A DNA stretch of 64,000 nucleotides from Lingula anatina (GCA_051362555.1 CM120648.1:18596587-18660586), one strand, 5' to 3'. Shown: positions 9,260 to 38,100, numbered from the stretch's first letter. The notes: generated by a model from the letters alone, not told the origin. Translations and numbers: made by a program.

Positions 9260-12200
9260 GTAAGTAGTTCACATGTAGTAAAACAAGATTCTTGTGTATT
9301 GCTCAGAATGTTCGGGAGTTTTTCTTAGCTTGCCGATTAGGTATGTCAGTGTCTACATTCTTATTTTCATCAAACTGGGACTTGGAACTCACACGGGCAT
9401 GAAGCCCAGTGGTAATCAAATTTTCTTAATGTCCATTTTTTTAATAGAAGATAATTAAAATTTTGTGGTATTTATACAGTTGACCATTATTGCATCAAAA
9501 ACCTACTTTGTGCACTATCACCATAACGTTATAAAATGAAAACTGTTACCTATTTTTTTTATTTACAAAATATGGTTCTTAGGATTGACAAACAGCTTAA
9601 ATTAGAAAACCAGCTCTTTTGAATTATCGTTTTTATCGAATGATGCATTTTTTGTGAAATTTTTATTTATCTCATTCTGGTGTGAGTTTGAACTCACATG
9701 GGCCTGAAGCCTTATGCTTTTACTTACATTGTTATATACTGTTGTGCATAATTAAATTTTGAGGTTGACTGTGCAGTTAAGCATTGTATTACATTAGAAC
9801 TGACAGCCTCCTATTTTGTGCATTATTATTTTCTGCTTTTTTAAAATTGTGACTTAGATATTTCATGGGCCTGAATACCGTTGCTAGTCACATTTGGGTG
9901 ACAAGCCTCTAATCTTCCATTGGGTAACTACTAGCTAAATTCAGAGCTATAAGGTCACTTGCCTCATTAAGTTTCAAGTAGCAATAAAATGAGATTATAT
10001 AAAACACTCATGTTGAGATTCCCTGTAAACTCCCATAGGTTAAGTTCTCTGCCAGATAACAGTGTCCATAATAGGGAAGCAGTGATAATTATGCAGATAA
10101 ATGTTGTTTGATATTGCAAATAAGTTTTCAAAAAAATTATTTTGTATAATGCCAACATTAATGCTGTATATGAACAACAGTGCCTTATTATCCTCAAATT
10201 CGATGGGGTTATTCATAACATGCTTATACATTAAGACTAAAAGTTTGAAAAGCAGCTTTACTGGAATAATTTTGTTATGTTTTGTTTTTAATTTTTTCAA
10301 ACACTGAGAATTTCAACTGAATTTTTAACTCCCCTCCACCTGAAGCTCTGCACATTTTCTGTTTTTCCACATAAGCATTTGTATTGGTATTTATGTCTTT
10401 AAACATTATGTAACATTATATTATTCTATGCACTGCTTTCATTTGTCATATTGTGATTTTCATCATGTGAATTTGAACTCTAGTGGTCCTGAAACTGTGA
10501 TCTTATCATAGGGGCAGATTGGGATCGTATTCAGGGTTTTCCATGGTTTTAGTCCCCACCTGTCCTCATACAGCTCCGCCGGCTAATGCGGCTCCGCCGG
10601 CTCCATAGTCGGGTGTCGGAAACAAGTCACCGTTACCGCTTCTCCTCCTAGACTGCCAGGACCTGTGTCCCCATCTCTTGGATTTAGGTCACATATAATC
10701 TCAACTTGAACACCCTGGTTTTTTTGTCTCTGTCATTGCATTGGCCTGGGCGTTACACTTGTTGAAAGGCACCCTTGTAAAATTTTTTGAAAATTAAAGG
10801 CTAAATATCTCCCAAACCAAAGGAATTATGGGAAAAATTACTACAGAAGTGTGACTGAAAGTCATATGTGGAGATTCCAAATATTCCCTTGGATTTGACT
10901 TTAGACCTTTTTTTCAAGGTCAAACAAGGTCTAAAAATGGGAATTTTCTGAAAAAAAATTTTGTTTGTGCTATGTTTTGGAAACTAAACAGATCTAAGCT
11001 CTTCTGTTATAGTGAGGGATCACAATTGGGGACTCCTTTCATCTTTGGGAGTTTGGAGTCAATCGGTGCATTTTCACGGGAGAAGCAGCCATAAGATACC
11101 GAAACTGAAAACTTGCTTTTATTCTGGAATGGTAAATGCCATAGACCTTTTGTTCATCTCATTATGTAGAATACTCAAGTGTAATACTGGAGGTGGTGTC
11201 CATTTGTTTGTTTTCGCTATGGTTTAGGCATTGCGCTATATCAAAAATTACAACTGCAATATTCAGTGGGGAAAATGTTAAATATTCCAAAATTAGCAGA
11301 GATATGCCCATAGTTACTATTGAACTTGAATAGGAAGTCATATACTGGTAATCTAACTGTGACCTTGAAATTGACTTTTGACCTACTTTTCATGATGAAC
11401 TGCACTTAATTTGAAGTATTCTGATCTTTGTATCTCCAAAACTGGCAGAGATACGCCCATAGTTACTATTGAACTCAAATAGGAAGTAATATACAAGTAA
11501 TCTAACTGTGACCTTTAAATTGATCTTTGACCTACAGTACTTTTCACCATGAACTGAACTTTGGAAATTTTCTGGCCCTTATATCTCCAAAACTGGCAGA
11601 GATACACCCATAGTTACTGTCAAACTTGAATAGGAAGTCATATACTGGTAATCTAACTGTGACCTTTAAATTGACCTTTGACCTACTTTTCACCATGAAC
11701 TGAACTTTGCACATTTTCCAGCCCTTATATCTCCAAAACTGGCAGAGATACACCCATAGTTACTGTTAAACTTGAATAGGAAGTCATATACTGGTAATCT
11801 AACTGTGACCTTTAAATTGACCTTTGACCTACTTTTCACCATGAACTGAACTTTGCATGTATCCTGGCCTTCGTATCTCCAACATTGGCAAAGAAATGCC
11901 CATAGCTACTATTGAACTTATATAGGAAGTCATACACTGTGACCTTGAAGTTGACCTTTGACCTATTTTTTACCACAAACTGAACTCTGCATAATTTCTT
12001 GCCCTTCATATCTTCAAAACTAGCAGAGATCTGCCTAGTGTTGTCCCTAGGTTTTCTCTTTTGTCAGCATACTGGAATATGCAATACTTATAATGCATTT
12101 CAAGGAAAACCAATAGGCCTATTGTCTAGAAAATAACAGGAGTGATCAGTGTAAGGAAAATACAGGTCAATTTGAACATCTCCTTGATTGGACCATTTAA

Positions 12201-15184
12201 ATTGTTGTTTTTTATTTATTTATTTTATTTTATTTTATTTTATTTTATTTTATTTTATTTTATTATTATTATTTTTTTTTTTTGCATGTTTTGAGAACTT
12301 TTGTTTATTGCATTTTATAGAGCTTGTCAAGCACAAGACTGGTGGTGATGTCCAATATATATATATATATATTTTTTTTTTTTTTATTTTTTTATTTTTT
12401 TTTTTTTTTGGGGGGGGGGGTCCATACGAATGTGCTTACTCCAGCTGGTGGTACAATATCCAGAGGCGGCCATTATACTTTTTGTGCCTTGAAGACTGGG
12501 CGCTTGATAGCAATTATACTTGATCTTATTAGACGCATTTTCAATGTAATTTATTTATTTTTTTACAATATTTATACAATATCCCGAAGTTAAATTATAT
12601 GTTAAAATTTTGGAAAGAAATTCCTTTATCTTAGCCCTATTTTTGTTTTCTTTAAAGTTGAGTCATTTTCTGCTAGAATGGTGTTTGATATTATTCTTCT
12701 CTTTATTCTACAGCCGCTCCCCCTGATGACAGTGAATCACCTGCCTCTCCTGACAAAACAGCAGGTACATGTAAGTAGCGTACATGTACTAGTAAAACAA
12801 GATTCTCGTCTATTGCTCAGAATGTTCGAGATTTGTTCTAGCTTGTCGATTAAGTATGTGAGTTCCTGCATTCTTATTTTCATCAAACTGTATGAATAAT
12901 GTTACATTGAAATTGACTATACCTTACAATTTTAATTGATTTTACTGAATGTAAAAACATTCAGTGTTTATCACCCCGTTATGTTTTGAGCTTATCCACT
13001 TGTATTCATCAGAGAGGATACATTTTAAAGAAAAGTTTGTTTTTTTTCGCAAATTGCTGATAAACCTTCAGACGAAACAGACGAAAGCTTCTAGTGTATT
13101 TGATAACTGTTTCACAAAGTTAATTGACACTAAACACATTCAAATTTTGTCAATAATTACAATACTTTTTAACGCTAAAAAGTTTTATTTTAACCGCACT
13201 GTTTATTGTACAGTCCCTTTCAAAGGTGAAAGTGGATCTCATACCTCTGGGGAAGAAAACATGAGTAGTATAAGAATGTTGACGATATGTCGATGTATGA
13301 ACAGTCCCTGACAGATGAAATAAATTAGATTAAAAGCATGTCTATTAAGATTAAGGTCTAGTCTCTCTCTCTCTTTCTCAAACCCCCCCCCCCCTTGAAG
13401 AAGGCACACAAGCTGAAAACTCAATCAGGCGCTTGATACCAATTATACTTATTACATGCATTTTCAATCTAATTTATTTATTTTTATACAATATTTATAC
13501 AATATACTCAGTATAAATACGATGACTTGAATAAATGTGCACTCATTTTAATACATTACAGTATGCATTATGCTAAAATCAGTTAGTTTGGACATAGCTT
13601 ATTGTATTCATCGCAGTGGCAGAAAGGGACCATCTAGATGATATTGAGAAGGAGCTATTGGAAAAAATTGAGAAAATTGCCCGAGGAGAAGATGTGGAGC
13701 CAGAGAAACAGGTCACAATTTGGGACTTTGCAGGTCAGGATGTCTACTACACCACGCACCAAACGTTCCTCTCAGAACGGATCATCTACTTGTTGGTATT
13801 CCGACTTAACCAGGACCTCGATGATAAAATCCCTGTATACAGGGGAGAGAAGACGCTGAAAGGTATTGTTGAGCTTTATGTATATATCTTTACATGTATT
13901 AGAGCGGATTCTCAACGAATTAAGCCAGGCTTTACAAAGCCAGTGACCTAAAAATGGCGGACGTACATGAAAGAAAACCGCCTAATCTTTTAATAGTCTC
14001 TCCGCCTCCCCACACGTCGTCCCTGCGGGGTACAGTAATTAAATCTCGGCTCCGTTCGCCATGCGGAAGCTACCTGAGAAATATTAAGTGCGCATGCTCA
14101 TTGGTCTTGGGTCAGCTGATCAGCTAGTTCCCCTTCTTCAGTTGAAAGAACGCACGCGACGAAACAACAACGACATCAGCTATCACAAATTATCATCAAA
14201 CATGCCTGCCCAGCGGTCAGACAATTGGACAAGACAGGAAACTGTAGCCTTGCTGAGCATTTGGGGGGAGGCAAATGTTCAACATCAATTAGAAGACGGC
14301 AAACAAAGAAACATTCATGTATACCGGTGTCACGTGAAGAAACCGTCGTCGTGAATAAACCGTTCTGACGGATTATTCACGCGGGGGTAGCAGTCCGTGA
14401 ATAAACCGTCGTCGTGAATAAACCGTCGTGCCGCGCTGGTCATGCTGCTTACCTGGCCATTGTTCTCCGGTTTTATTACGCAATTTGGAGGCACTGTACA
14501 GTGCACATATATCCCCACATATATATATATATCACACCTTACCTGGTTATTGTTCTCAAGATACACCAATTAGGCCCTACTACAGCTGTTGTAAGAACCT
14601 AGATGAGATCGTTCAAATTTTGTCCTTTGTATTGTGGGTCAAGTTTATCTGTTAGTGTTAGGTATAAATAATTTTGTTTAGCTACTATTTAGCCTATGCA
14701 TTTTTTTTTTTTACTTTATGTTAATAATATTTTGGTCTGTCTTGCCGAAGTAGTTTATTGCGGTAACCGTAGACAGCAACCAGATCCTAAAACAATTAAG
14801 ACGAGAGAACTTTTAACCAACATACCTGGGTAGCCTTGTGAGTACACAGATTGTTGATATTTAAGAAATCCCTTAAAGAATTTTCAGTTGACTTCCATGC
14901 CAACTTCAGGAATATATTTGAAAAATAGAGATTTAAAGTTAAGAAGTAGGCCCTATTTATTGATACAGACAAAAATCGCAATTAAATGTAATTTAATGTT
15001 TTTTCCATTCAATTCTAGTGCCAAATGAGACTTGGATGAATTTTTGAGATCATGTATGGTATATGTCCACCAATTAAAACTAGTCATTTCGTGTCCATTA
15101 CTTGTCATGTGTTTTGTAATCATTGCAATATTAAATGAACTTCGCTGTCTTCATGTTTTACATATAAAGAACCAGTATTATCCT

Positions 15185-15216
<32 letters not shown>

Positions 15217-18200
15217 CTGTATAAAAATCAAACTCAATTTATTGTTATATTTCTCATTGCTTTATCACAACATGAATGATAAATGTTCACATATTTTCAA
15301 AAAAAAAAAAACAATAATAATAATAATAATAACTTCTAATTAGATATCAAACATCTTTTTGACACACATTACAACATGACAAAATGTGGCCAAAATTTCT
15401 TTTCAGCCATCATTCAAATGTTTTCATAATTTTCTTAATTTTGCGCACAATTTTGTACAGTTTTCAACCTTTTTGAAACAATATGTTAAGGATAAATTTA
15501 CATTTCAGAAAATGTTTTAGACTTTTGTTCCCACCAGACGTTGATAAAACATCCTTAAATGTAATTGTAATATTTCTTATTTTTTTATATTTTTTCAAGT
15601 TTTTAATGGCACTATTTCCATGTACCCTAGGTTCTAGATTTAGGTATTGCCAAATCGATCTTGATTTCATATATATATAGCACACTTCAGCAATACACCG
15701 TAAAGCTAACACATGAAAAGGTTTAGTAAAAAAGCTAGCTTTATAGTGTCCTGACCCTCAGGGCATTCCTATGTGGTTTTCTAGAAATTTTAAAATGTGC
15801 TAATGTTTAAGATTAGCAAAATTAAAAAAGAACACAGTATATTATACAAAATACAACATGTTTATTTGGTGATGTGAAAATATAGAACAATTACAACAAG
15901 TAATCATCACAATACACACACACACTATAATTTTAAGCTATTTTCTTCTGCCAATCAATCTGAACAATGAAATAAAATAAATGTGTTAAAGCTTTATGAT
16001 ATAAAAAAAACTGACTTGAAGGTGGACTGTTGGGAATGCGTCGACCTTCTCACTTTGGACGTGTAACACACCTGTGAACATATCTAAAATTATATAATGG
16101 GCATTCATACGAGTCTTACGACGACTTTCTGCAAACGCAGTCACATTCACGACACTGACAAAGTTGACTTACAGCACGTAGCTACATATGTATTTCCAAC
16201 ATTTCGCCGTAGAGGAAGTTATATTATTGTCAAACACACACTTTCTCTCGACAACAATTACTGAACTCTAAACTGAAAGAACGTTGTAGTGTGAAAACAT
16301 TTATACTACGAGTCTTACTACAACTTCATCACAGAGCAAAACAGTTCAGTCACGATCACAATCTCAGTAATAAGGGCTGTGTCACACGCTTCCTTTGGTG
16401 TTTATATAAAACTTTTTCAACATTCCTCCGTGGAGTTTATTATAAGATTATCAAATACATACTCTCTCATGGCAAAAACCACTGAATTACGAATTGAAAG
16501 GTCACTAGTTCCAAAAATACCTACGACGATATCGTCATACCGGAAGTCCCTTCTTTCAATCTACACTCAATGCGCATGTGCAGAACGGTTTCGTCACGGC
16601 ACGGGTCTATCACGCCACACCGGAGGATAGCGGAGAGGTTACAGAGGGAACATGGATTTGAGAGAACTGGAAAGGAGTGTTTAGAAAAAGTGAAGAGGCT
16701 AAAGGAGCTGTACAAAAAATCCAAAGATCAAAACAAGTAAGTCGCAAGAAACGTTTAAATCAGTGGCACTCACATTGTGTATCAAGATTTGTTTTGGCTC
16801 ACGGGGATTCAATATGGTCGGGTATTTGGGGTCTCGCAGCTTTATGTAGCCGATGTCAGTGCCGTTTACTATTGGCCTAGTTCTAGAATAACGAAGAAGT
16901 CCTTCCACGCAGATTTTCATATTCATAATTACTTTTAGGTAACTTTTACTTTCTTAATTTTAGCCGGAGTGGAGCAGCCCCAAGGACATTTCTCTATTAT
17001 GACCAGTTGGACGCCATATTGGGCAATCGCCCCATTGAAATGCCCACACGTCTGTTGGAGTCTGGAGTTGATGATGCAGGTATGTTATGATACTTTGTTC
17101 TTCTTCTAGCTTTACAGCTGCCAGTGTCACTGCAGTAAACATCCCAATTAAGGGAAGGGCACCAGAGCTAGGGTCTTTGTCACTGTTGTGTTCGTGCATT
17201 TTCCTACCTTCACCCGGTGTGCTCTCCCTGCGCGGAGAGCGCGCAATTACGGTAAGTACTGCGCACACCAGGTGGAGAGTCCAACTTCCCTGCCTGATCC
17301 CGGTGAGTACAACTCAACCACAGCTACCGTGCAGACGTGTACGGTACAGACGACAAAAAATAATCAGAATTGAGACACAATACACAGTGATCTACAATCT
17401 CACTCCGTAAGTAGAACCAGTGAATACTTTATTGGCGACGAGGCATTCGTAACTTGTAATTTTGCGGGCCTAAAGCTTAGTTTTCGCTGCGATCTAGCTG
17501 AAAGTAGATTACGCGGGAAATTCCTTTGTCTAACATCCTTTTGAATAATTGGGTGGAGCGGCGGTCAAAATTGTAGTTTCAGTTTTGGATCATAAAGGTT
17601 ACCGCTTCTGGAGACACTGGTATTTGTTGCGTATCTACTGTATTTTCAGTGCTTACGTGTGTGAATTGTGATATAAAGGAGACGTTGGTCTCATTCCCCT
17701 GTGTGTTGTTATCAAAGCTGAATTTTCCCCAAGACTGAGGTGCACACGTAATATTTTAGTTTCTTTGTTTCTTTAGTTTATTTGAAAGAATAAAATATTG
17801 ACTTCAGTGTTTTTGTTGATTATTCTTTTGTATTTTAGATAGGATTCTGAACAGAATTTCTGTCTAAATTCAACTTATTGCGTTGTGTGCCGAAGTCTTC
17901 CTTCCCCGAATTTGAATTAACTGTACGTTTTTGGATTCTATTTATAGTGAATTTCGCTATAAGCTTGGAAGTGTATTGTGCTTTGATAGGTGAAATTATT
18001 TTGAATCAATTTAATTCTCGCTTACAAATGTACAATGGCGAGTGCATCAAGGTTGCCAATCAATCGTGCGACTTACGATGAGCTCGTTACGCTGCCGGGT
18101 ATAGGTCCTAAACGTGCAGAAAGGATAATATACGCTAGAGAGCAAGGGATCCCCGTGACCAGATCCAACATTTTGGAAATTTGTGGATCCAATACCGGAT

Positions 18201-21200
18201 CAAATAAAATCAAAAATTTCTCTTTTGGGGGTACTCACAGCAGTGAATTAGGATCTGAAGTCAACATGGGTGACCTAGACCCTAGCGTATTATCCACTCA
18301 AAAAACTCATTACACAACTTCTAAAGTGACTTCCTACATTCAGCATGAAGGAAGAGCGGCTGCTGAGAGATATAGGGCGGAATTTGAAAAAATTCTCAAA
18401 CTGGGTGAGAAAATTCAACACCAAGAACAAATTTCTCGCAGTAAAAATATAAAAAACGCTGCTAATTTTTCACCATCAACATATTCTAAATTAAAATCTT
18501 GTTCAAAATCACATTTTCACTCAGCTATTGACCCAAAATCTTTCACATCGCAGCCAGCCACTTTAGCCTCTGAACACGACATTTTTGCTCTGCCTATTGA
18601 GAGGCTGCGTGCCAATAACAAAGATAAAAAAGTAACATCTTCTGTGCATGCAAAGTCTTCAGGCCGCGTCATGAACCCTGATACTGTTACTTCCTTTCCG
18701 AATGGTAAGGACAGTAGTCGGCACTTTGCTCCGTCTGTCCATAAGGGTGATGTGAATTGTGATCTGTATCAGTTTCATGTTCCTAAACCCGGAAGGCGGC
18801 AACGACATGTTGAGCAAAATTTTGCCGATACAGTTCAACAAAATCATGAATACCGGTCTAGTTCAATAGGAAAACATTATACGCGCCCTAGAATCTCGCC
18901 TCCCGTTTTCTGTGACGAACCACTAATTTATGAAAGGGATAACATTGAAAAAGAATACTTTCGGCTACCCAAACCAGAAAAAGTAGGTCCAAAAAGTAAA
19001 AAGGACAGAGTAGACCCCAGTGATTTACCTAAACAATTATCGTTTGACGGAAACAGTGACGACTGGGAGTCTTTAAGAAAAAGATATGAAAGTTATCGCC
19101 AGATAAAAGAGTGGTCAGAAGACGAGTGTCTGGACTACCTTCTGTGGTGTCTTGAAGGCGAGGCTTTGGCCCTGTATAATAGCCATCTCAGAGCAAATAA
19201 AAATGTGTCGTACACATCTATAATGAAAGAAATGGACTTAGTGTTCGGGATTAAAAAACATCCCGATTCGGCTCGCCTGGCATTTCTTACTGCCGTTCAA
19301 TCGCAAAACGAAACGTTAAACCAATGGCTGTGCCGCGTTTTGTTATTGGTCAGAGATGCTTATCCTGATAAATCGGAGTCTTTTAGGACAAAAGAAACAA
19401 TATCAAAATTTTGTCAAGACTGTATTGATCAGGATGCTGGGCGTTATACTAGTTTAAAGCATCCAGCAAGCATCAGCGACGCAATAACACATATGGTGGA
19501 CTATCAACATGTTTGTAAACCCACGAATAGTCAAAAAGAAACAAGAAAAATTCGTGAAAAAATTCAAATATGTTCTCTTGATCTTACAGCTAGAGAAAAT
19601 CAACAATCTCCATCTGAAAATGTTGAAAAACTAGTTGAGTCCATCATAGAGAAACGTGTCAGCCAGCAGCCAAAATTGAGCACAATTCAATTTAATTCAA
19701 GGGCTGACTTGGAAAAAACGGTTGAACATTTGGTCAGGAAGTCCACACCTAAAACATCAAGTGTGTGTTTCTTCTGTAAAAGAAAAGACCATTTTAAAAG
19801 AAATTGCCAGAAATATAAAGAGTTCTTAAAACGAAAAATTACTGAAAAAGAACTCGCAAAACAAAAGCGAGCTGATAACGCTGAGTCATTTAAACTTAAG
19901 GTTCGAGCATCGAGTACATGTTCAAATACACCGTCTCAAATGCATGGCACAGAAAAACCTCACCTAGTAGAACAATCATTGCAGCAAAATCAACGTAGGG
20001 GCGTAGAGTGGGAGTCTGATCCTAGTATAGATCAAAATCCTAGGCTTTCAGGCAATTTTTCGTCCATTAAGTGGTCTCGGGTGTAGATCAGTGGAAAAGT
20101 GGACATGGGCGCGCAGATTTCTGTAATGTCAGGGAGAGTGTATTGCGCGCATTTAAGGTTAGCCATCAGTTTTAAGTTGCCTCGACCTACTATCTCTTGC
20201 TGCAGGGAATAATCGGAAATTAGGAAAACGGGTTTGCATACATAATTTTGAGTCATTTTAGAATCAGTTGTTGTACATGTAGCACCAATGACAATTTTAA
20301 AATTGAATGCATATTTTCAGTGCAAAGTTTTCTGCAAATTGACGGAAAAGATAAAGCGGAACAAAGGATTCGTAGATCAAAGAAATAAGAGTAGCACCAG
20401 TACGTATAGGCCTAGTAAAAAGAAAAGGATAGTGGAATCCCCAAAAAATCGGAACATGATTCCATGCGAAATCTATAAACTGGCTGAAAGGTAGTCATGG
20501 ATAGAAATAAAGAGTAAAATGGGGTTACTGACTCAGAGAATGGTGCTGTCCGAAAATTCCGATCAATAAAGAAAACTTCATGCGGTAAAGTCATGTGGTA
20601 GCTGCAAGTGGCAAACACATTTTGGAAACCTCTAAATTGGATTGATATTAGCTTAGGGGGGTGGATTGTAAAGTTAAAAAAAAAAAAATCTGTGCCTGCA
20701 TTATCAGTTACAAAGCTGATGAGACAACATGTACCGATGTACCGGTGGGAACACCTGAAATTATTCATAAAATCAGCTGTTTCTAGAACCGGTATCGAAT
20801 CTTAAAATACGCTTGTGGGATAAAACATACTAGTGGAGGTTTTCATTCACCCTCCTATAACTGGTAACATCCCTATAACAAGTGTACACCCGAACCAAGA
20901 CCTAACTTGTGGGATTAAATTCTGCAGGGGTTTCAAGTGTTAATTCCCCTAATTTCGAGAATATCCCTAGAACAAGTAACCGATTGAAAAGGACTAAATG
21001 TCACAGACTCTGAAGGTGGGTGGAAGCACTAAGGGCCCTTCAAGTGCCCCATTCACTGGAAGACGTTTGTAAAACTAAAAATTAACACAAAACTACCGGT
21101 AGTATAACATCTTTCAAGACTCCAAACATCGGGAGTCCAAATTTAAATAAAAATGCTGGTGACGTTCACATCGGGCTAGACTCTTCGGGTTGCGTGTCTC

Positions 21201-24200
21201 TAGTAAAACAGGTTATCCCTGGACATCTGGAAGTGATGTTTAAAGTATCTAAAGGGAATAGTGTAGAATCAAATTTAGAAGGGGTGTTTTCTAAATTGAA
21301 ATATGTTTTTACTAGAGACAATTTTGATCTTGGTCGGTCTTAAGTCACTCAACGTGGAAATGAAGCCGAGAATGCCGAATCCCTTAAATCGCGTATGCGG
21401 TGGATGCTTGCGTGTGTCATGCAGAAAGCATAGGGGGCATTGTTAACGGAATGTTAACAACCGGATTCATGCAAGGCTGACAAGAGTCTCAGTTTGTGTG
21501 GACATTAGCACCAGTGTTAAATAAGAAAACGTGACGTCACGGTTAAAAATTTCCAATGGGGAAAATTAAAAATATTGCTAGCAATATCCTTAAAGAATTA
21601 GACTATCACTTTGTGATGTAGTTTATTTTTGTGTTTAAGAAAAATGGCTACAGTCTATTAAGATCAATTAATGGACTATAACTGTTATGTAGCTTATTTC
21701 TGTGTTAACACATGACTACAGTCCATATGACTATCACTCTGTGATGTAGTTTATTTTGTGTTAATAAATCGCTACAGTCTATTGTGATCAATGGACTATA
21801 ACTGTTATGTAGCTTTATTTTGTGTTAACACGTGACTACAGTCTAATTTGATGAAATTTTTGAAATACCGGGATCTTATTTTTGCATTCCATTTTTCTTT
21901 TCATTTATTTATAAGAATTTTTGGAACGGACTATCACTTTATTTTTGGTGATGTGACTGGCTGGTGAATGAACAGCTCATCACAGTCTGTTCTGCTGTTT
22001 ATTTATTTTTTGTATTTTTCTTCGGCGGACTATCACCTCGGTGATGTTGTTAGCACTAACAGCTAATGACAGTCTGTACGAATATTTCAACTGGAATCCA
22101 CTTTATTTCATTTATCCAAAGGAATTTTAAGTTTGTACATGGACAAACATGTATTTATAATTAGCTCCTTTCAAATAAAAGTGGGGGGAATGTTGTGTTC
22201 GTGCATTTTCCTACCTTCACCCGGTGTGCTCTCCCTGCGCGGAGAGCGCGCAATTACGGTAAGTACTGCGCACACCAGGTGGAGAGTCCAACTTCCCTGC
22301 CTGATCCCGGTGAGTACAACTCAACCACAGCTACCGTGCAGACGTGTACGGTACAGACGACAAAAAATAATCAGAATTGAGACACAATACACAGTGATCT
22401 ACAATCTCACTCCGTAAGTAGAACCAGTGAATACTTTATCACCATCGAAAATTGCCAAATTAATTAACCTGTCAGTTTTCCCAGGTAACAAAGACCAGGA
22501 AACTGACAGGTTAATTAGCTGCCTACTTCCTTGTTTGCTATTGTGGACACCTGTAATTGATAAGTCCATTTACAATTAAAGTTGTGTAGTTGGTTCCCTT
22601 CACTGAGTAAATGGCTCACTGCATGAATTATATAGAAAGTTATTTTTAAATTGTTTTATTAAATTTACCAAGCAAGCTTTGGGACTGTTCAGGTGACATT
22701 TATTAACAATAGGATTTTATTTGTTTATTATTTTTTTATGTCAATGAACTTGTTTATAGCCTGATATCTCATTTTCTTCAGGGCCACTAGAGAGAGCAGA
22801 GGAGGAAGAAGAAGAAGAACAAACACAAGATGACGTTGATGAGACAGAAGAAAACTTGGTCACCCCTATGCGGCCTCGGGCAGGCAGCAACACTTCAAGT
22901 AGCAGTGGGTCAAGTATGTTATATATTTGGTGAAACCCGCAACAAAAACTTTTCTTCAGCTCATACACATTTCTGTCACTAGTCCACATTTTGTGTTTCA
23001 CACTTTTGGTACAGCAATATCTTAAAAAGTGGTATGTATGATATATGTTAAATACCCAGACCATACATTATATAGGTGACATATCAGTTTACTTATAGAA
23101 TTCAGGACATGTGCAGTGTCTGTAGGTCAGACATGTACTGTAACCTAGCTTTCAGTTTGTGTTAGTCACACAAATAGTAAAAATCTGCTTTCTAGAAGTC
23201 GAGAGAATTCAAGTTAACATGAGAAAAAAGTATTTTTTAAAATTTGTTTTATATTACTAAAACGTTTCTAGTTTTAAAATTGTACCTTGCAAATGTTTCA
23301 TACATATAATTTTTCTTTCAGGCTCTAGGAGGAAACGTAGGCTGACAGGGGAAGATGTGGATGTGATGCTAAAAACAATGCTACAGAAGCAAGACGATGA
23401 GAGGAACAGCTGGGCTGAACTTCAAAAGGAGGTTGAGGAACGTCACAGAAAATGGACCATGGAGCTGGAAGAGAACAGGCAAAGATGGCTTGAAAATATG
23501 GAAGAAAGGAAGAGGCGATGGATAGAAGCAATGGAGGAGAAAGAAAGCCATCGCCGGAAGGAAGATCGGGAACATGAACTGAATGTATTAAAGCTCATAA
23601 TGAATTCTAAATAGAGAATTTTTTTTTTAATTTATTTATTTCCTTAACATAGAAGGATAGAAACAGTATATTATTTAAGGAATGAAGGAGTATATTGGAA
23701 ATCATTAATGTTTTCCCATGAAAGTAAAAGCTCATTAAGAAATATGATACAGAGATCTTAGAACTAATTTATAAGAGTTTGCTAAAATAAATATTTGATG
23801 ACAATATATTTCTCTACTTCTTTTAAACACCAAGTTTTTTGATGGGCTCATATGTATATATCATATTTTTTAATAATCATAATACATTTCTTATCCGTTC
23901 TCTTTGTGAAACTCCTCATTTTCTAATATAGTTAATTTTGTATTTTATTTTTGTCTTTACCAAGCAGGTGTTTCTGTCCATAATGTTCTTACTATTTCAC
24001 ATTTATAAAACAAATGTACTGTTACTGTATCAGATTTACAGGGAGAGCAGGTTTTATTTGGAACTTTTCCAATTTTATACCAAAAATCTCTAGTGGCTAG
24101 AATTGTGTTTATAATAATGAACTGGAAACATCTCTTTTTTACAATAATGAATGAAATAAATTGTGTTAACTATCTATAGTCAAGTCTTGATTATTAAGAG

Positions 24201-27200
24201 TGTTCACCTTGAAAAGAAAAAGACCATATTCAATAACTGTATGTGAAATTTTACTTTCGAGTACCTCTGCAAGTGACAGGCTTTTTATATCTTATGCTGT
24301 TGTGAAAAATTATCACCAGTTAAATTCTTTTTTGGAAGGGGGGATTTTTTCACGATTTAGATCCCTGTGAATTTGTTAATATAAAAGGGATAAAAACTCT
24401 TCGTATGAGATCTATATTTCACAATACATACATTGTGAGCAACTTATAGAAGCAAACTATATTCTATTATACCACGAAAACTGCAGTTATAGCTATTATC
24501 TGATATCTGAGCTCGTCTCTGGACTAGGTAACCTCCCTTGATGGCTCGACTCTCTTAAGATATAACATTCAAAATATGAATAGAAATAATACCTTTTCTA
24601 ATTGTAGGCAAGTCTGGGTTAATTAAGGGTGCCCACATTGAAAAGAAATAATCTATGCTTCCATTTTTTTTTTTTTTTTTGGGGGGGGGGGTGAAACAAC
24701 CAGATTTGTGCAGATGTTTTTCTTTAAGAGCCCCAAGACGATGGATGTTTTGCACTAGTTACAAATGCTGTATTTATAAATACAAATCTTCACCAGTTAA
24801 TAACTTTGGCTTTGTGCATCTGATCAATTTCATGGAATATGCAAATAAATGAAATCAGTACTAATAAAGTAATGAATTATATTTATTACTACTTAACAAT
24901 AGCAAAAATACATTTGTCTTTCTGTTCATGCTAAGTGCATACAGCCTGCTTCAAATTTAAATTTAATCTGAAATTCAGGAAGTGACAACAGCATTAATAC
25001 ATATCCAGGTAACTGGAGCTTTGCATCTACCTTCAAACAACAAAGTTACACAATTTCATGTGTTTGATACAACCACGTAACCCAAATTTTCTTTACTTTT
25101 CTACAGCTAGTAATGAACATCCAAACTTTCCAAAATTCTACATTGATTTAAAGGACACCATCTCATCCCTATTAAATACCAGTGTGCTGCAAACCATAGC
25201 ATAGCACTAGGTAAAATATATCACGTTTGTGGTCCAACTTTTTTCAAGACTGAAAACTGAAGGACAAAACTGACACCTTATCTGTTGTTAAAATACTGAA
25301 CATAGGCTTCTCTTATGGCTTTGGCATCATACTGTCTCATGTCATGTCCTGGTTGGTATCCATTATGATTTCGATCTTCCTCCACCAAGTCCATCCACTC
25401 CTGGTCAAAGCCTTCATTGTGAACCATGACAACATTATGCAGTGTAAAGCATGCTAGGATCAGCACTGGCACAAATTCAGTTTCAAAATTTACCCTTTGT
25501 TGAAGTATTTGCCATTTCCCTTTGCATCTACCAAAACACCCCTCAATGCACATTCTTCCTCGAGAGTGGCAATAGTTGAAGTTCCGTTGTGCTTGAGAAA
25601 GGACACCAAACTCTGAAAATGTTTTTAACAGCCAAGGTTTGAGGGGATAGGCAGGGTCACCTAATATTAAAATCGGCACTTCTACTCCATTTATCAGTCG
25701 ACTTGTCGGGGGGAATAAAGTCCCACTTTCTGCCTTTTGAAAGATGCTCGACTTTGCTAGTACTCTGGCATCATGCACTTGGCCTGGCCAGCCGGATACC
25801 ACATGCAAGACTCTTAGTTCATGATCACATATCACCTGTAACGGAAAGATGAAAAATGTATGAAATGTGACAAGACTAAAATAATATAATAATAAATGCT
25901 GCTTCTAAAATCCAGTGAAAAATTGCTAAATATTAATAAGAGTCTGAAATAAAACACCAACATTTGAATCATGTTCCAAGACTTTCATAAAACGCAGATT
26001 AAGCACCACCAAAAGGTGTAGCTATGTACTGAGAATACTGTTAACTGTGTATTTGTAAATTATGGGGTGGAATAGGTGTAACTGTACTTAGTGGACAATG
26101 TTTGGTTTTGTATGAAACAAGGCCTCTACAGAGAATCCTGCATGTTGTATATTTATTATTCTTTACCTGACTGACAATGGAATAAAAACTTTTTCTGTTG
26201 TAGTAATCGATCTTGTGTTCGCTTGGAGCAATAATGGGCACGTGTGTTCCATCAATAGCCCCTGCACATTGTGGAACACCCCATTTGGCCTCAAATCCCT
26301 CCACAATATTTTGTAGTCTTCTCCCACTGGGCATCTGAATGAACTTAGGAGAAAGATGGGATGCTATTGCCTGCACAGTTTCTCGGAAAATGTTGCAGGC
26401 TGAAGATATCCCAACTCCAAACAAATGCCCAATGCTTCTGTATTCCATACCAGAGCCACATATCCAGAGAGTCACTGCAACCCTGAGTTCAACTGAATGA
26501 CATCTAGGAAAAACAAAAATTGTTGTTATTGTACAATATTATGTAATGACAATTCCCCAGTTTGGGTTATGAATATAAAAATATTTGAGCTTATAATTTC
26601 CAATCATGGCAGTGATTATCCCTGCTATTGGTCCATATCAGTTGCATTACTGTTTTGTTATTTATTTACCACCAACTTTGGAATTACACAATTTTGTATA
26701 AGAAAAAAAAGTAAGTTTATGCTAAATTACCCATATGCCTTTTATATAACAATAAAGCAACATGACTGTATAATTGACAGTAGTCTGTACCCTTTAGATC
26801 AACAAGAAGACACCACTGTAATATTTAAACTATATAATGCAAATTTTACGGGGAATCATATGCATTCCTGTTCTTCAAGTTATTCTTCAAGCATGTACTG
26901 CCACTTACTTTCTGTTGGAGTTTTTCTCCAGAAAAGGTCTGAGTTCAAGGCAAAGATACTGGAATGTTGCTCTTTTCATTCGGAAATTTTCCATCCAATC
27001 TCCATCCGTAAAAGTCTGATTCACTATATATTCCCACCAGTGGCTTGATCTAAAATATAATTTTAAAATATACATCAAGATGAAAAAAATCCAATTCTGA
27101 CTGTCTAGAAAAGACTTTATATTTGCTTTCATCAAGGTTAAGATATTTTGTTTACCTATGAATAATACTCTAAATGTGCAAAATAATACAAAACTACTAG

Positions 27201-28601
27201 TGAAATGCATGAAAAGCTAGATACAGGAGAGTATTATGATATACGAAAGGGATTGGTCTGCAGTGATTCACCTGTGCTAACCTGCAGTAGCTGGTCATAA
27301 TAATAATAACAACAATAATATAATAATAATAATTATATTAACGTCTCACATTTTAAAAATAAAACTCACCCTCCTAAGGGTTATGAGAGACTAAAAGCTG
27401 TACTGCATTTAAAATTCATTTAAGTTCTTCAAAATTATAACTTATCAACAAAACACATAAAAGGTATATTAAATATACTTTTCAAGCCCTCTTTTCCACA
27501 TCACTGCATATACTTTTTCAGCGGTATAAAATTGTATTTGGTCGTTTAATTGGCATAAGGAATATAAACTTTTCATAGTCATGAAAAGCGGTTAAAAGCA
27601 TTCCAAGTATTTGTCTTATTTTATTTGCACGGTTAAAAAACTTTTCTCCAATGTCTTTTATAGAGCACACATTTAATTAAAAAATGTTTCTCACACTATA
27701 TTTCCTTTGAGGAACAATAAATGCAAGTAGTGCATTTCAAATACAACGACATCGGTTAATTAAAACCATGTTATCCATGCCATGGTTTCACCTCTTCTTA
27801 TCATAAGTATTTTACCTAATTTTATTCTATCACCAAAACAAAAAAGGCGCATGTCACCTACCTTTCTTTCATCCAAACAGTTCGATCAGGCGTGGGGAAC
27901 AAGGCAAACATCAGCATAAGAACGAACTGCGCCCTTTGACGAGACTGCATACGCAAAAATTCTGCCCACCTCCAACTACGTCTACTGGGGCTGTGTAGTT
28001 CTGTGAATATCTCTGGTGATATTATCTCCGTAGATAGTCGATTCGTTGCTACTCTACGGGCCAATTCATTCCTTTTTCGTCTCTGTTTTGACCGATAATA
28101 AAACAGAAGAGCTTTTTTCCTTCGAACGCCTTCAGCCGCCATTTTTCTTCACCACGAGTTTAACTGATGAGCATGCGCACTTGATATTTCTCAGGTAGCT
28201 TCCGCATGGCGAACGGAGCCGAGATTTAATTACTGTACCCCGCAGGGACGACGTGTGGGGAGGCGGAGAGACTATTAAAAGATTAGGCGGTTTTCTTTCA
28301 TGTACGTCCGCCATTTTTAGGTCACTGGCTTTGTAAAGCCTGGCTTAATTCGTTGAGAATCCGCTCTAAGCTACTCAGGGCCCTCATGTAAATAATGGCC
28401 TGTCAACTGTGTGTAATTTCTTTATTAAAAGACCCACATTTTTAAATCTCTCTATTGCTCTTAATATATATTTATATATATATCATTGAATTTTTAGTAG
28501 TGTTAATTTTAAATTGTTCCGATGAGTGTTTTAGATTTTAATATTGTAGTAATTTTAACGATTTTAGTTATATTATCCATTGTAAGCCGCCCAATAAGAA
28601 A

Positions 28602-31600: not shown

Positions 31601-34600
31601 TCCGTTACCTCCATTATGAGACAGACGTTATCAGTAACCTGACTGCAAACGTGAGTTCATTAATAAGATCATGGTGTGTTTGTAATAAAACGAACATTGT
31701 AAAAGCCAAATGGCTTTTAGGTTTCAAAGACTAACATACTTTTTGGTGATATCTAAATATATTTATCAGTGATACAAAGATGATACAATTGATACTTGAA
31801 CCTTTTGGTTCAAAACAGGTGTTGTCAAACAAACTTTTGGGTCACATTTTATTATGTATATCTATTTCACTGCAATACATTTTTCTACTAAAATGAAGCT
31901 TTTCACTCGTTTCTGTTCATTGCATGTATTTGTATTTATATGAGAGACGTATGGTACACTGTATAGTTATACAACATTGGTCAAAAAGGTTGTCCCACCC
32001 CTATTTCCATTTACTTTTATTTACAAATGATCACCTTACAGCTGTAAATTGTTAGAAGTAGTGCTTTTTATGTACAGACACATCTACATATAGCCATTAT
32101 CTGCGTCTGTCATCGCCGTCGTCGCTGTCGCCGTGCACTTTTACCGATAACACGATAAGTGGAAAACTGTTTTGTCTTTTGGCTTGAAACTTACAGAACT
32201 GATGAATATTCATAATACGCAGGTCAAGTTCGAAAATCAGCATGATCGGGTCACTTATAGGGAATTTATGCTGTTTTTTCACTTTTTTCAGCATATATAC
32301 AGCACCGATAACACGATAAGTGGAAAACCATTTTACTTTTTGGCTTGAAACTTACAGATCTGATGAATATGATCTGATGAATATTTATAATACGCAGGTC
32401 AAGTTCGAAAATCAGCATGATCGGGCCATTTTTAGGGAAGTTATGCTATTTTTTTCACTTCTTTCAACATATATGCAACGCTAATAACACAATATAAGAA
32501 AAACAGATAGGCCAATTGTCATTATACTCACAGGAGTAGTCAAACTAACTAAAATGCAGGTTGAGTTCCAAAATCAGCATAATCGGGCCATTCTTTTAGA
32601 AGTTATGCTGTTTTTTCTTATTTCCTCAGATTCAATTGTTAGGCATGTTAACAGTCTCATTATTGAACTAATAGGATACGTAAAAGTGTTTGTTTGACAT
32701 TTCCTGCATCTTAATAACATTGTTAGTTGATTATGTAAAAATGATGGTAAACTTGTTATTGTGTATTATGTTATAAAGTGTCAAAAATGGAAATAAACAA
32801 ATATCATTGCAGTTTCTCAGATTCAATCATCTACTATATTCATTATCTCAGAATGGAGGAAATTGGACATTTAACACTGTTCTATTGATATTTTTCCCCA
32901 TCTCATCAATTTTCTTAGTTAATCATATACAAATGGTAGAAAACTGTTTATTGTTTTATGTTAAAAAAGTGTTTTAAAAATGGAAGTAAACCCATTGCAG
33001 AACAGTGCTGTCTTGTTTCAGCATATATGCAGCACCGATAACACGAAGAGTGGAAAACCATTTTACCTTTTCCCTTGAAACTTACAAAACTGATGAATAT
33101 TCATAATACGCAGGTCAAGTTTGAAAATCAGCATGATCGGGTCATTTTTAGGGAAGTTATGCTGTTTTGCACTTTTTTCACCATATATGCAACACTGATA
33201 ACATGATGAGTGAAAAATCATTTTACCTTTTGGCTTGAAACTTACAGAACTAATGAATATTCATATTACGCAGGTCAAGTTCGAAAATCAGCATGATCGG
33301 GTCATTTTTAGGGTAGTTATGCTGTTTTTTCACTTTTTTCAGCATATATGCAGCACCGATAACACGATAAATGGAAAACCATTTTACCTTTTGGTTTCAT
33401 ACTTACAGAACTGATGAATATTCATAATACGCAGGTCAAGTTTGAAAATCAGTATGATTGGGTCATTTTTAGGGAAGTTATGCTGTTTTTCACTTTTTTC
33501 AGCATATATGCAACACTGATAACATGATAAGTGGAAAACCATTTAACCTTTTGGTTTGAAACTTGCAAAACTAATGAATATTCATAATACTCAGGTCAAG
33601 TTTGAAAATCAGCATGATCGGGTCATTTTAAGGGAAGTAATGCTGTTTTTTCACTTTTTTCAGCATGTATGCAACACCTTTGTGCTATATGACGGTACTG
33701 TATGGATAGCAGTCTTTAAAATTGTCCCTTGGGTGATCACTAATTAAATTAAGGTCTATAAAGTCACTTGCCTACTCATTAATTTTCAATTGGCCATTAA
33801 ATGAGATTACATAAAACACTCCTTGAGATTTCCCTGTAAAGTCCCATAGGTTTAGCTCTCTTAACTGTGTCACAAAATTAGGATTTGGTGATAAATGTGC
33901 AGATAAATGGTGTTTAACATTGCAAATAATTTACAACAAAAAGAATGTGTTATGCCAACATGCTATAGATGCGTAACAGTGCTTTATTTTTCTCAAACTT
34001 GGTGGGGTTATTAATATCAAGTTAATACAGCTAGATTAAAAGTTTGAATAGCAGCTTTATTGGAATTTTTTACGTTTTATTTAATTTTTTTTAAATTATT
34101 TTTCAAACACTAGCATCTTCAAGATGTGATTTTATACTCCCATCCACCAGAAGTGCTGTGCATTTTCTGTATTTTTGTATATAATTGTTATTTCTTCAGA
34201 TTTAATTCTTAGCCATGTTAACAGTCTCATTATGGAACTAATAAGATATGTAAAAGTGTTGTTTTGACATTTTCTGCTTCTTAACAATATTGTTTGTTGA
34301 TTATATAAAAATGACGGTAAACCTGTTATAATATTGTGCATTATGTAATAAAGTATCATAAATGGAAAGGAACTCATCATTGCAGTTTGTCAGATTAAAT
34401 CATTCACTATGTTCAGCATCTGCAAATGGAGCAAATTTGACATTGAAAATTGTTCTATTGATATTTTTCCTATGTCAACAATTTTCCTAGTTGAACATTT
34501 AAAAATGACAGTTTATTGATCATTTTGTTTTAAAAAAGGTGTTGAAAATGGAAAGAAAATCATTTCAGTACAGTTATCTCTTGTTTACATTTTGGCATTT

Positions 34601-35067
34601 TGAAAGTGTGACTCTGAACTTCCATGGCCTTGAAGACCTTCCCAAATCACATTTTCTGAATATTCATGATACTTTTATTTTTTTATAAAAATTTGATGGT
34701 CATTATGCTGTTAAGTATTATGTTTTATTGCATGAAAGTTGAAGAAAACCCTATTTTGGACACTGCTGCCAGGATAGCGATTAAGGGAAAACCATGTTAC
34801 TTACGATACTGAAACTTAGTGAAAAGTTTCATAAGACAGAAATGCGCAGCTTGTGTTTGAAAACCAGTGTGATTGTTTTCTGTTTTGGAGGCAATGCAGG
34901 TTTATAGAGTGCTATACTGGCATTTTCAAGTTGTGACTTATCACTCCCATCTGCCAGGAGCCCTGTACTCTTACTTTGTAACATTTTCTGTATTTTGTTA
35001 AGTTACATGAATGATTCTTAGGATTGACATACAGCCAAAAAAAAAAAAAAAAAAAAAAATTAATAAT

Positions 35068-35143
<76 letters not shown>

Positions 35144-38100
35144 GAGTTTAAGCAATTTTTTTTTTTGTGTGTAATTTTCACTGTACCTCATTCAGGCATT
35201 TCCAAAGTTTAACTCTTATCAGCCTGACACCTTAGGGACTATTTCCAGACTCTATCACGCTAACTGTGGATCGATCTATCTCCATGGGAATTCTCGCTAA
35301 ATTGCAATCAATGTAAGTGGCTTAGTTGTCTGTCACGCCTACTGAAACTGGCATGCCAGAATCCTAAGACTCTCAAACTGAAAGCAATTTAGTGAGAAAC
35401 CCCTTGGAGTTGGATTGATCCTGTTAGATTGATCTAGGTATGGGAACTTGGTCTAATGCTTGATACACCTTTTACTTTCATCCTAATCCAATGTTTTGCA
35501 GAATAAGAATTTGATGTTGGCTATGCAGTTACAGTAAGCATAATACATTAGTTCATCAGAATTGACAGTATCCTATTTCCTGCGTTTTTATTTTCTGGTT
35601 TTTGTCTGTACATTTGACAGCTTTGCTGCCTTGTTATTACGGATACCGTGTCTAACTTGATTAATGGTTTTAAAAATACAAAATAGTGGTGAAAATATAC
35701 ATATTTTATACCATTTAGTAAAATTTATAAGAGGTACCCCCTAAAATCGACTGTTTCACTGTGACTTCTACAGATGTAAAGTAATGTCTATAAAATTGAA
35801 AAGACGCCATCAAATTTCACCAAATTCACACACAATAAGCATTAGGGCATGCTTGTTAAAGGTCACGTGCCTAACAGCGTGCACGTGTGTGTCTGCCGCG
35901 TACTGCAATTATCTCCTGTAGACGGCGCGACAAGCCTTCAACACGGGTTACAATTCTGCTTTGTGGGATATTGTCCGATTCTTCTTAAACAAGATGGGGG
36001 ATTTGGCCCAGGTTTTTATGGGGTTGGTTCTTTACATCTGTAGAAATCATAGTGAAACAGTCGAATTGAGGGGTATCTCTTATAAATTTAACTAAATGGT
36101 ATAAAATGTGTATATTTTCACCACTATTTTGTATTTTTTTTAACCATTAATCATGTTAGACACGGTATCCGTAATAAAAAGCACTATTTCTAACAGTTCA
36201 CAGCTGTGAGGTGATCATTTGTAAATAAAAGTACATGGAAATGGGGGTGGGACAACCTTTTTGACCCATGTTGTATACAGACAGACATGGCGTACAATCT
36301 ACATATATACCAGCATATGTCCGTCCTCGGTGGCTACTGCCTTTCACATTCTCTGTTTGCGTCAAGTATGAATTGATGCTGCCATTTTGCTTTACGCTGA
36401 CGTTGATAACCCAATTCCGTACGTACCACGTCTCTGCAGTCATTGCATGCTATTTCGTTTGAAGTACACTGTTTTTATGTCACTTCTTCTTTTATTTTAA
36501 TGTGTAAAGGAAATGAAGGAAGAAATAGAACAAGAAAGTCAAAGAGACGATCACAAGATCTACGATTCTTTCATCTTGTTTCTACTGAGCCATGGTACCG
36601 AGGGTGCTGTTTATGGAACGGATGGCGCTCCTTTACCCTTCAAATATATCAAAGGCATTTTGAATAACAGGAACTGTCTTGGCCTGTCGGGCAAACCGAA
36701 AATGATATTTATTCAGGCTTGCCAGGGAAGTAAGTTATGGAATGTATTACACAAGCTTGAATACCTGCGATGAAAATAACATGCAAAATTATTAAACAAA
36801 TGTATTGAGATATTAAACTGTATTAACAGTTTGTCTCCTTTAAATTATATTTAGCCACACGAAACGAATACGCTTAGTATTATGTAATTGTTTAATTAGT
36901 TAAAGGATTTGCATCATGCCATCAGAATGGCCTGAACGGAACATATTCTTCAGAAAACATGCCCAACTAATGATATCTTTATCCAAATACACAAATTAAA
37001 AGCTCATTTTGTAAATTTTTGGCTTTAAAAAACGTCCTATTTGCTCGGCCTGGGAGTTAATGAGCTACGTGGTCACGTGGTCCGATGACGACAATCGAGC
37101 CACTGGAGAACAGAGCGTGCTTAGCTGTCAAACTGAGCTGCATTGTCTACCTATAAGATGACTTCTCTGGCTTCTGATAAAGTTTATACTCATTCAAATC
37201 TCTTACCCGAGGGGTCTAAATCCTCGTGAAGCTGTGTAAAACCATTTCCCGTCTAGTCAATTCTTAAACAAGCATTTAATTATGGTTGTCCCAAGTTGTA
37301 TAAAACACTGCATTTGAATGAGTTAAAGGAAATGTTGATTATTGCATATGAGGTCCATGTTATTTGTGAAATTCAATTTATTTTGTTAAACCGCTGACAC
37401 TCCGTCTTGCATACTTTTATTAAACTGAGGTAAACAATGCCCGTTACCTTAACAAGTCCTATCTTAATCATCCATCTAACTGGAACTTCCTTTACCTCTT
37501 AATTAGAGGGTTAAATGGCATTCAATTTGTCTTGCTTGTATATAACGCACTCTCTATCTAAGCTTTACTCCAGTTATCTCAGGTAAAAATCTACCTGTGC
37601 GTTAGTTACAAAGAGCAGCTCACGTAGACCTGGGGGTACCAGATAAAATCTGAACACCAGGTTTATCGAGGAGCTAGAGAGAGAAACGAAGAATTTTTCC
37701 TGCACAACTTCATAGGAGTTTTAATACAGACTTGATCCAGCTTAGACCTCCAAACTAACAGGGTGACATGGGCAATTTTCACAAACAAATCATAAAACTA
37801 TATTTCAGTTAACCGCCTTTGAAATAAATATACCGTTCTGGGTAAATTAGAATAGTTATTAAATCGAAAGAATATTTTTGACTTAAATGATGATTTTATT
37901 ATTAATGGAAATTAAGCTACTATATGAGGTACATTTGCTGTGATTACGCTGTCCTTCATGTTTTGCGTAAGTCTACATTTTGCTGTATGTGCTTGTAATT
38001 TTTTTAAATATGTGCGTACAATTTTTACAGGTCTGGTTACCCCCCTGTTATGTGATGAGAGTATAAATTTGGCAATTAGTTCCTTAGCTTATTTAAATAG

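Follow-up and report, generated by a model that had tools for sequence, protein, structure and literature searches.

The 3′ untranslated region (UTR) of a non-autonomous LTR retroelement from Lingula anatina carries six copies of a three-way RNA junction in which all bases at the junction are predicted to be paired. The structure of this array is solid, and the data support the view that it is a cis-acting RNA structure of the sense strand that the element has kept. It may serve as a tag, specific to its family, that the element's own Gag recognizes on RNA to be packaged, a reading that we favour tentatively and hold at slightly less than an even chance. The preliminary description of this DNA had also proposed a cis-acting element; the sense-strand structure kept by a non-autonomous element stands, but the topology needs revision, as copies 1–4 are predicted to form a rod.

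The element spans positions 17184–22438 of the window, i.e. the whole stretch of 64,000 nucleotides that was analysed, in AT-rich animal DNA; all features below are on the + strand unless stated otherwise. It displays the LTRs, target-site duplication, primer-binding site and polypurine tract (PPT) expected of Ty3/gypsy-type elements. The insertion is a recent one: the 5′ LTR (17184–17431; 248 nt, TG...TA) is 100% identical to the 3′ LTR (22191–22438), and the target-site duplication TCAC (17180–17183 and 22439–22442) is supported both by the sequence and by an empty-site contig. The primer-binding site TGGCGACGAGG (17433–17443) was recognized from the sequence, the same 11 letters being found behind the LTR of the relative L044, and an AATAAA followed by the PPT lies at about 22174–22190. 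According to domain matches, relatives and a tree, the element encodes an intact Gag of 683 aa (18035–20086) with an N-terminal helix-hairpin-helix (HhH), a PNMA/capsid-like domain and a CCHC knuckle. This Gag is related to those of elements with the order PR-RT-RH-INT, the pol of the element itself being incomplete. The decayed and truncated pol remnant (20087–21528) contains many stops; its last detectable homology (about 21203–21528) covers the part just ahead of RT and the start of RT, and no RT core, RNase H, integrase or ORF3 was detected in it by homology to the pol of relatives. The first junction copy begins about 70 nt past this last homology. As pointed out in the preliminary description, the array has been kept while pol decayed into a stop-ridden remnant, and it has been retained together with an intact Gag.

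In a contig from another run of the species, position 17179 is joined to 22439 with four shared letters, which corresponds to the empty-site allele. The summed contig depth in another run of the species is about 520–2740 within the element versus 81–113 at its flanks. From this excess of depth and from the empty-site allele with its 4-nt duplication, we infer that the family is multi-copy, insertion-polymorphic, recently active and non-autonomous. RNA reads on the element are few (51, 42 and 148 per run), those of run X15 being nearly all in one orientation, and their depth is too shallow to locate RNA ends. The LTR element belongs to a set of nested insertions (13899–28369): it lies within a DNA transposon whose terminal inverted repeats are perfect over 203 nt and which carries an ORF of the DDE_Tnp_4 (Harbinger-type) kind; this transposon itself interrupts a Roc-COR gene. 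Further along the window (32096–51223), several interspersed arrays of a 161-nt tandem satellite are found with associated repeats.

The six junctions reported in the preliminary description were all recovered at their positions and with the P1, P2 and P3 letters that it had listed. Their cores lie at 21601–21655 (copy 1), 21674–21723 (copy 2), 21729–21779 (copy 3), 21794–21843 (copy 4), 21929–21987 (copy 5) and 22028–22074 (copy 6), between the truncated pol and the PPT. They share the consensus GACU/AUMAC..GUKAU/GU..AC/AGUC, where slashes mark the strand crossings. Sixteen letters around the three-helix junction are invariant, whereas the outer pairs vary yet stay paired. The P2 loop ranges from 1 to 10 nt, so that the spacing of the half-sites varies. 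A pattern with a P2 loop of 3–12 nt matched four copies and had no match in 100 shuffles; near-matches with up to two mismatches are present on both strands. The covariance-model search that had been called for retrieved exactly these six copies in the 64-kb window (51–78 bits), the next match reaching 16 bits; no further copy was found by this model elsewhere in the element, all six lying within 480 nt. No tandem array was detected by TRF at the junction copies, which are therefore not head-to-tail repeats.

In the alignment of the six copies, 94.8% of the cells are paired (23–48% in slid controls); 10 of the 16 pairs never vary and four change on both sides. Copies 3–4 duplicate copies 1–2 (85% identity over 123 nt), so the pair counts of this alignment overstate the number of independent events, which is lower than six copies would suggest, and the shuffles of that test ignore relatedness. 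A stricter test was thus carried out, in which the core letters were fixed, all other letters were shuffled 20000 times and the extra pairs stacked on P1 and P3 were counted. Fifty-one such pairs were found for the rod topology described below (shuffle mean 8.6), 37 for the monomer topology (mean 9.0) and 19 for copies 5–6 only (mean 3.0), and none of the 20000 shuffles reached any of these values. The predicted fold of the array is also 26 kcal/mol below the mean of 40 core-fixed shuffles, and the 3′ UTR region is very stable (z −4.4). The arms thus pair beyond the core, and the loops of copies 5 and 6 are unrelated.

In the predicted folds, no base is left unpaired at the junction, as had been claimed. 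The statement that each copy folds as its own junction holds for copies 5 and 6 but not for the others. Copy 5 (21922–21994, with an 11-bp P1) and copy 6 (22025–22077, with a 9-bp P3) are predicted monomers, with junction pair probabilities of 0.77–0.99. In copies 2 and 4, AUAAC and GUUAU are only 1 nt apart, which leaves a 1-nt P2 loop, and P2 and P3 do not form in the monomers (pairing probability 0.00–0.04). Copies 1–4 (21595–21849) are instead predicted to swap strands and to form one nested rod of four junctions rather than four monomers: J1 would consist of strands a1, b1 and c4, J2 of a2, b4 and c1, J3 of a4, b2 and c3, and J4 of a3, b3 and c2. The predicted energy of this rod is −75.6 kcal/mol (z −6.0), i.e. 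29.5 kcal/mol lower than that of the four monomers (−46.1 kcal/mol), while two other swapped topologies reach −60.3 and −69.8 kcal/mol. Its flanking helices a1–c4, c1–a2 and c3–a4 comprise 10, 10 and 9 bp, versus 4–7 bp for P1 formed within a copy, and in it the palindromic P2 strand of copy 2 pairs with that of copy 4. Since the junctions of the rod would form from strands of different copies, the conserved unit appears to be the junction itself, defined by the crossings CU/AU, AU/GU and AC/AG and occurring in more than one circular permutation; open-P1 and open-P3 permutations are both present in the predicted fold of this single array. A 9-pair loop-downstream pairing noticed by eye in copy 5 was rejected, as it is absent from the other copies.

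The preference for the + strand that had been put forward is found for the whole array and for copy 6 but hardly for copy 5. The RNA fold of the array reaches −136.7 kcal/mol on the + strand, where it includes 19 G-U pairs, versus −104.9 kcal/mol on the − strand; the corresponding DNA folds reach −64.6 and −51.8. The z-scores of copy 6 are −3.7 (+) and −1.1 (−), whereas those of copy 5 are −4.9 (+) and −4.5 (−), its minus strand also folding well.

The natural variants listed mostly keep or improve pairing. Five of the read variants listed lie at or just after copy 5. Among them, the variant at 21977 turns a G-U pair into G-C, that at 21979 would add a C-G pair, that at 21994 would turn a terminal U-G into U-A, and that at 22006 affects an unpaired position just past the copy; the variant at 21988 breaks a G-U pair unless a change of the partner compensates. 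In a variant contig, strand c1 reads AACUAC, which makes both P3 wobbles Watson-Crick.

An Rfam search, as had been recommended, showed that the array matches no described family of ribozymes, xrRNAs or viral cis elements. Scanning of 16800–23000 gave 13 matches at E≤10, none of them real; the only one overlapping the array is mir-994 on the minus strand (19 bits versus a gathering score of 93). In agreement with the preliminary description, the hammerhead core is lacking, CTGA.GA being absent from both strands of the 3′ UTR. The snRNA-type Sm site RAU4-6GR does not occur in each unit; its two matches both fall in the stretch that separates copies 4 and 5. The GUGAUGU of the array, which we likened to the box C/K-turn consensus, has no D-box partner, and this assignment was rejected. 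No description of the junction motif was found in Rfam or in the open-access papers searched.

The DNA-level relatives of the element all come from three host-contaminated metagenome-assembled genomes (MAGs) of symbionts. The closest relatives of its Gag are proteins of Lingula and Dreissena, found by a HMMER search of representative proteins (a word-indexed protein search gave none), and a Gag profile search retrieved 11 related elements in host-contaminated symbiont MAGs; 60 more gypsy-type element contigs were taken from two of these MAGs. Searching genomes of the symbiont families (matches in 3 of 301 and 1 of 122) added only one host-contaminated MAG, with short pieces. The MAGs G002 (JBEVXV01), G003 (JBEVXT01) and G001 (FXLX01) contain many intact gypsy-type retrotransposon contigs, presumably host DNA, with 125 RT matches in G002. 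No relative of the element was found by Gag or RT among viral contigs.

The junction motif was not found by pattern, model or motif-agnostic scan in any of the related elements collected, which lie outside the 10-row Gag subclade of the window's element (Gag identity about 23–33%). The covariance model R1 had no match in 31 related loci. In 43 more loci, its best match (23 bits; L099 1501–1560, G002:C612) is a single look-alike with a 3-bp P2; it lies in non-coding DNA that shows no homology to gag, pol or ORF3 and is probably due to chance. In the genome-wide search with R1, 150 candidates per genome were scored. Two pattern matches in viral contigs and 35 in metagenome contigs were also attributed to chance: each of these 37 occurs as a single copy, only 18 have a complementary P2, P3 comprises 2–5 bp and no Gag homolog is found nearby. 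A motif-agnostic scan for at least three equal perfect junctions within 700 nt covered 71 loci and both strands (1,043,132 bases). This signature is absent from the 15 rows that it returned; those inspected, three in number, are plain tandem repeats. Absence from related active elements had been named beforehand as an observation that would speak against the motif; in the distant relatives, to which the search extended, the motif is absent, and other multicopy motifs are found there instead.

The autonomous relatives encode Gag, a pol whose integrase carries a PHD finger and an ORF3 that ends in TatD and whose N-terminal part is uncharacterized. The PHD finger terminates the integrase in the three pol segments scanned; ORF3 (716–932 aa), located after pol, ends in a TatD DNase domain in all five scanned (L040, L041, L043, L045 and L048) and was also found by HMM in L079, L082, L085 and L095. 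No description of TatD-bearing gypsy LTR elements was found in the open-access papers searched. The N-terminal HhH of Gag is a feature of the clade, as 43 of 157 proteins match window 18035–18200 (first 60 aa) at E≤1e-3, although one of these 43 is an unrelated multi-HhH protein; the literature searched contains no description of an N-terminal HhH on a retrotransposon Gag. The domain was detected in all six Gags of relatives scanned, yet these elements carry plain hairpins. The HhH is therefore not tied to three-way junctions, and a link specifically between this domain and such a junction is not upheld.

At least three copies of another structured motif are present in the 3′ regions of 11 of the 16 relatives inspected (L041, L043, L044, L045, L048, L082, L083, L086, L088, L090 and L098) but not in those of the other five (L040, L085, L091, L095 and L097). 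These patterns were mostly picked by eye, L048 giving only two by regex, and plain tandem duplication accounts for part of the motifs of L082, L083, L044 and L090. In an unbiased test of 7-mers, the 3′ UTR of the window and those of 3 of 13 relatives beat all 200 shuffles, and three more relatives reach 9–14 of 200; the same test on 5′ UTRs gave one of 11. The sister elements L086 and L088 (99% SH-aLRT) share a bulged hairpin GUGGCUWG..CUGGCC (L086 7930–8759 and 1–835; L088 646–1645), with six and five matches in their 3′ UTRs and none outside them or on the minus strand; these UTRs otherwise align only in short pieces. L043 and L045, which form one 99% clade, share a CG-UUCRA-CG hairpin with seven copies each on the + strand and none on the − strand (0.05 expected). 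Its copies (L043: 75, 255, 5508, 5670, 5817, 7720 and 11258; L045: 4297, 9756 and 11294–11626) are found in the 3′ UTR and also inside pol and ORF3, and each closes a different stem of 3–11 bp. The UUCRA loop resembles a T-loop, and the hairpin looks like a putative dispersed packaging signal. In the Gag tree (43 rows, quick maximum likelihood, one long-branch locus left out), the window's Gag falls in the 10-row subclade together with Lingula, to which elements near the lophotrochozoan proteins XP_013398410 and XP_052220033 would belong. As far as three MAGs and motifs partly picked by eye can indicate, it is suggestive that the type of motif follows the Gag tree.

These observations are those on which the tag reading is built. 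As the invariance has its centre at the junction and gives way, further out, to compensatory pairs, it points to a ligand site at the junction rather than to a recent duplication. The reader of the genomic RNA would probably be encoded by the element, since motifs change with the Gag tree within the same MAG and the sister motif is dispersed in coding sequence on the genomic strand only, and Gag is the candidate because it is the sole protein that the element has retained. The process could run as follows. The junction, set only by its three strand crossings, would form whichever arm stays open, so that tandem copies would swap strands into a rod, a swap between two RNA molecules being also possible. 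Several junctions would then offer avid and cooperative binding to Gag and nucleate the capsid around the element RNA. Gag would in this way select the array-bearing RNA for particle assembly, while a helper element would supply reverse transcriptase and integrase. Every family of the HhH-Gag clade would have its own tag, which would turn over with Gag. Some observations argue against such a tag. In retroviruses, most packaging signals are located 5′. The knuckles of nucleocapsid bind preferentially to G that is exposed and unpaired, and the fully paired predicted junction therefore counts against it. The motif of the window is clustered, unlike packaging signals of the dispersed type, to which only the different motif of L043/L045 conforms. 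The array is also retained in part because it lies so near the PPT.

The main rival, possible but distinctly less probable than the tag, is a nuclear export or localization element of the CTE, RTE or MTE type, through which a host adaptor or a Rev-like protein of the helper would export the unspliced genomic RNA. It owes this rank to the position of the array between pol and PPT, where transport elements are found, and just 5′ of the PPT as is the RTE of IAP, which is among the parts common to the shortened IAPs studied (PMC4383553), and to the dedicated export systems of MusD and Cer1, i.e. a structured transport element (PMC3362945) and a requirement for the CERV protein (PMC10309623). The ORF3 of autonomous relatives, with its uncharacterized N-terminal part, and the U-rich UUUAUUUUG tracts that recur next to the junctions would also suit export. 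On the other hand, the complete turnover of motifs between Gag subclades in the same MAG suits a partner encoded by the element better than a fixed host factor, the motif of the sister clade is dispersed through ORFs, and the array has no Rfam match to described elements. A role in dimerization of the genome, in which interchangeable strands and the palindromic P2 would allow mixed junctions between two genomic RNAs, seems the least probable of all: pairing of core strands is as good between different copies as within one, and each P2 strand of copies 2 and 4 is its own complement, but the intramolecular rod already satisfies all strands and the motifs of relatives are ordinary hairpins.

Three other readings are each improbable. 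The array could be a new small self-cleaving or processing ribozyme that trims or circularizes the RNA 3′ end, the junction being the ground-state fold of a circularly permutable molecule that forms strand-swapped dimers. The 16 invariant letters at the three-helix junction, the presence of open-P1 and open-P3 permutations in one array and the pairing of the palindromic P2 between copies 2 and 4 would fit, and the layout is reminiscent of the minimal, dimeric hammerheads found in Penelope elements (PMC4209133). Every invariant letter is, however, predicted to be Watson-Crick paired. There is neither an unpaired core nor a hammerhead core, and no ribozyme family matches. Reverse transcription of LTR elements needs the U3-R end of the RNA, which a cut 5′ of the PPT would remove. 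It is hardly more plausible that the array stabilizes the RNA, either as tandem xrRNA-like exonuclease roadblocks or by protecting from nonsense-mediated decay the 2 kb of untranslated sequence that follow the gag stop. Flaviviral xrRNAs are indeed tandem three-way junctions in a 3′ UTR, which the very stable region of the window resembles; an xrRNA depends on unpaired nucleotides at its junction and on a conserved pseudoknot between loop and downstream sequence, whereas the loops of the copies are unrelated, no junction base is unpaired and no Rfam xrRNA matches. A non-functional or DNA-level origin, i.e. a fold that arose by chance and was duplicated in tandem, or an array of sites for transcription factors, is similarly doubtful. 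The duplication that gave copies 3–4 agrees with it, and gypsy-type elements commonly have 3′ tandem repeats peculiar to each family, the function of which is stated to be unknown (PMC11963269). Nevertheless, the variable half-site spacing does not suit the binding of DNA by a dimer, covariation of the arms extends past the core, TRF detects no tandem array and folding in the RNA sense is favoured.

If the tag reading is correct, recognition of the motif by the cognate Gag (or ORF3) would explain how the RNA of Gag-only parasites is packaged, and its family specificity would explain why families living side by side do not package each other's RNA. A three-way junction that is fully paired and permutable, and whose sequence is kept, would in any case be an unusual target for RNA recognition. 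Several known systems come closest to the array. Gypsy-type elements carry repeats specific to each family behind pol and ahead of the 3′ LTR, their origin and function being stated as unknown; they share with the array their position, their family-specific sequence and their variable copy number, but the copies of the window are not head-to-tail, have a junction core with covarying arms and belong to an animal element (PMC11963269). In at least one invertebrate clade, such 3′ repeats thus appear to be structured RNAs whose arms covary around a fixed core. The multiple packaging signals of ssRNA viruses are likewise many copies of a structure with a common recognition motif on the genomic strand; the UUCRA hairpin of L043/L045, dispersed through ORFs on the + strand only, is like them, whereas the motif of the window is clustered in the 3′ UTR and is a three-way junction without a conserved unpaired loop rather than a stem-loop (PMC6281560). 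The RTE of IAP is, as the array, structured, located after pol and before the PPT and common to internally deleted copies (PMC4383553). Hammerheads, including the Penelope dimers, resemble the array in their three helices, conserved centre, tandem copies, permutable topology and pairing between copies, but the array has no unpaired catalytic core, CUGANGA or GAAA, and lies in the 3′ UTR of an LTR element and not in terminal repeats (PMC4209133). The HIV-1 packaging signal is also a three-way junction in the genomic RNA of a retroelement, although it is located in the 5′ leader, is unrelated in sequence and is not a repeated, fully paired junction (PMC5784592). Compared with these systems, the array is best rated as a probable cis-acting retroelement RNA signal with a new fold and a new arrangement, its function itself being a prediction.
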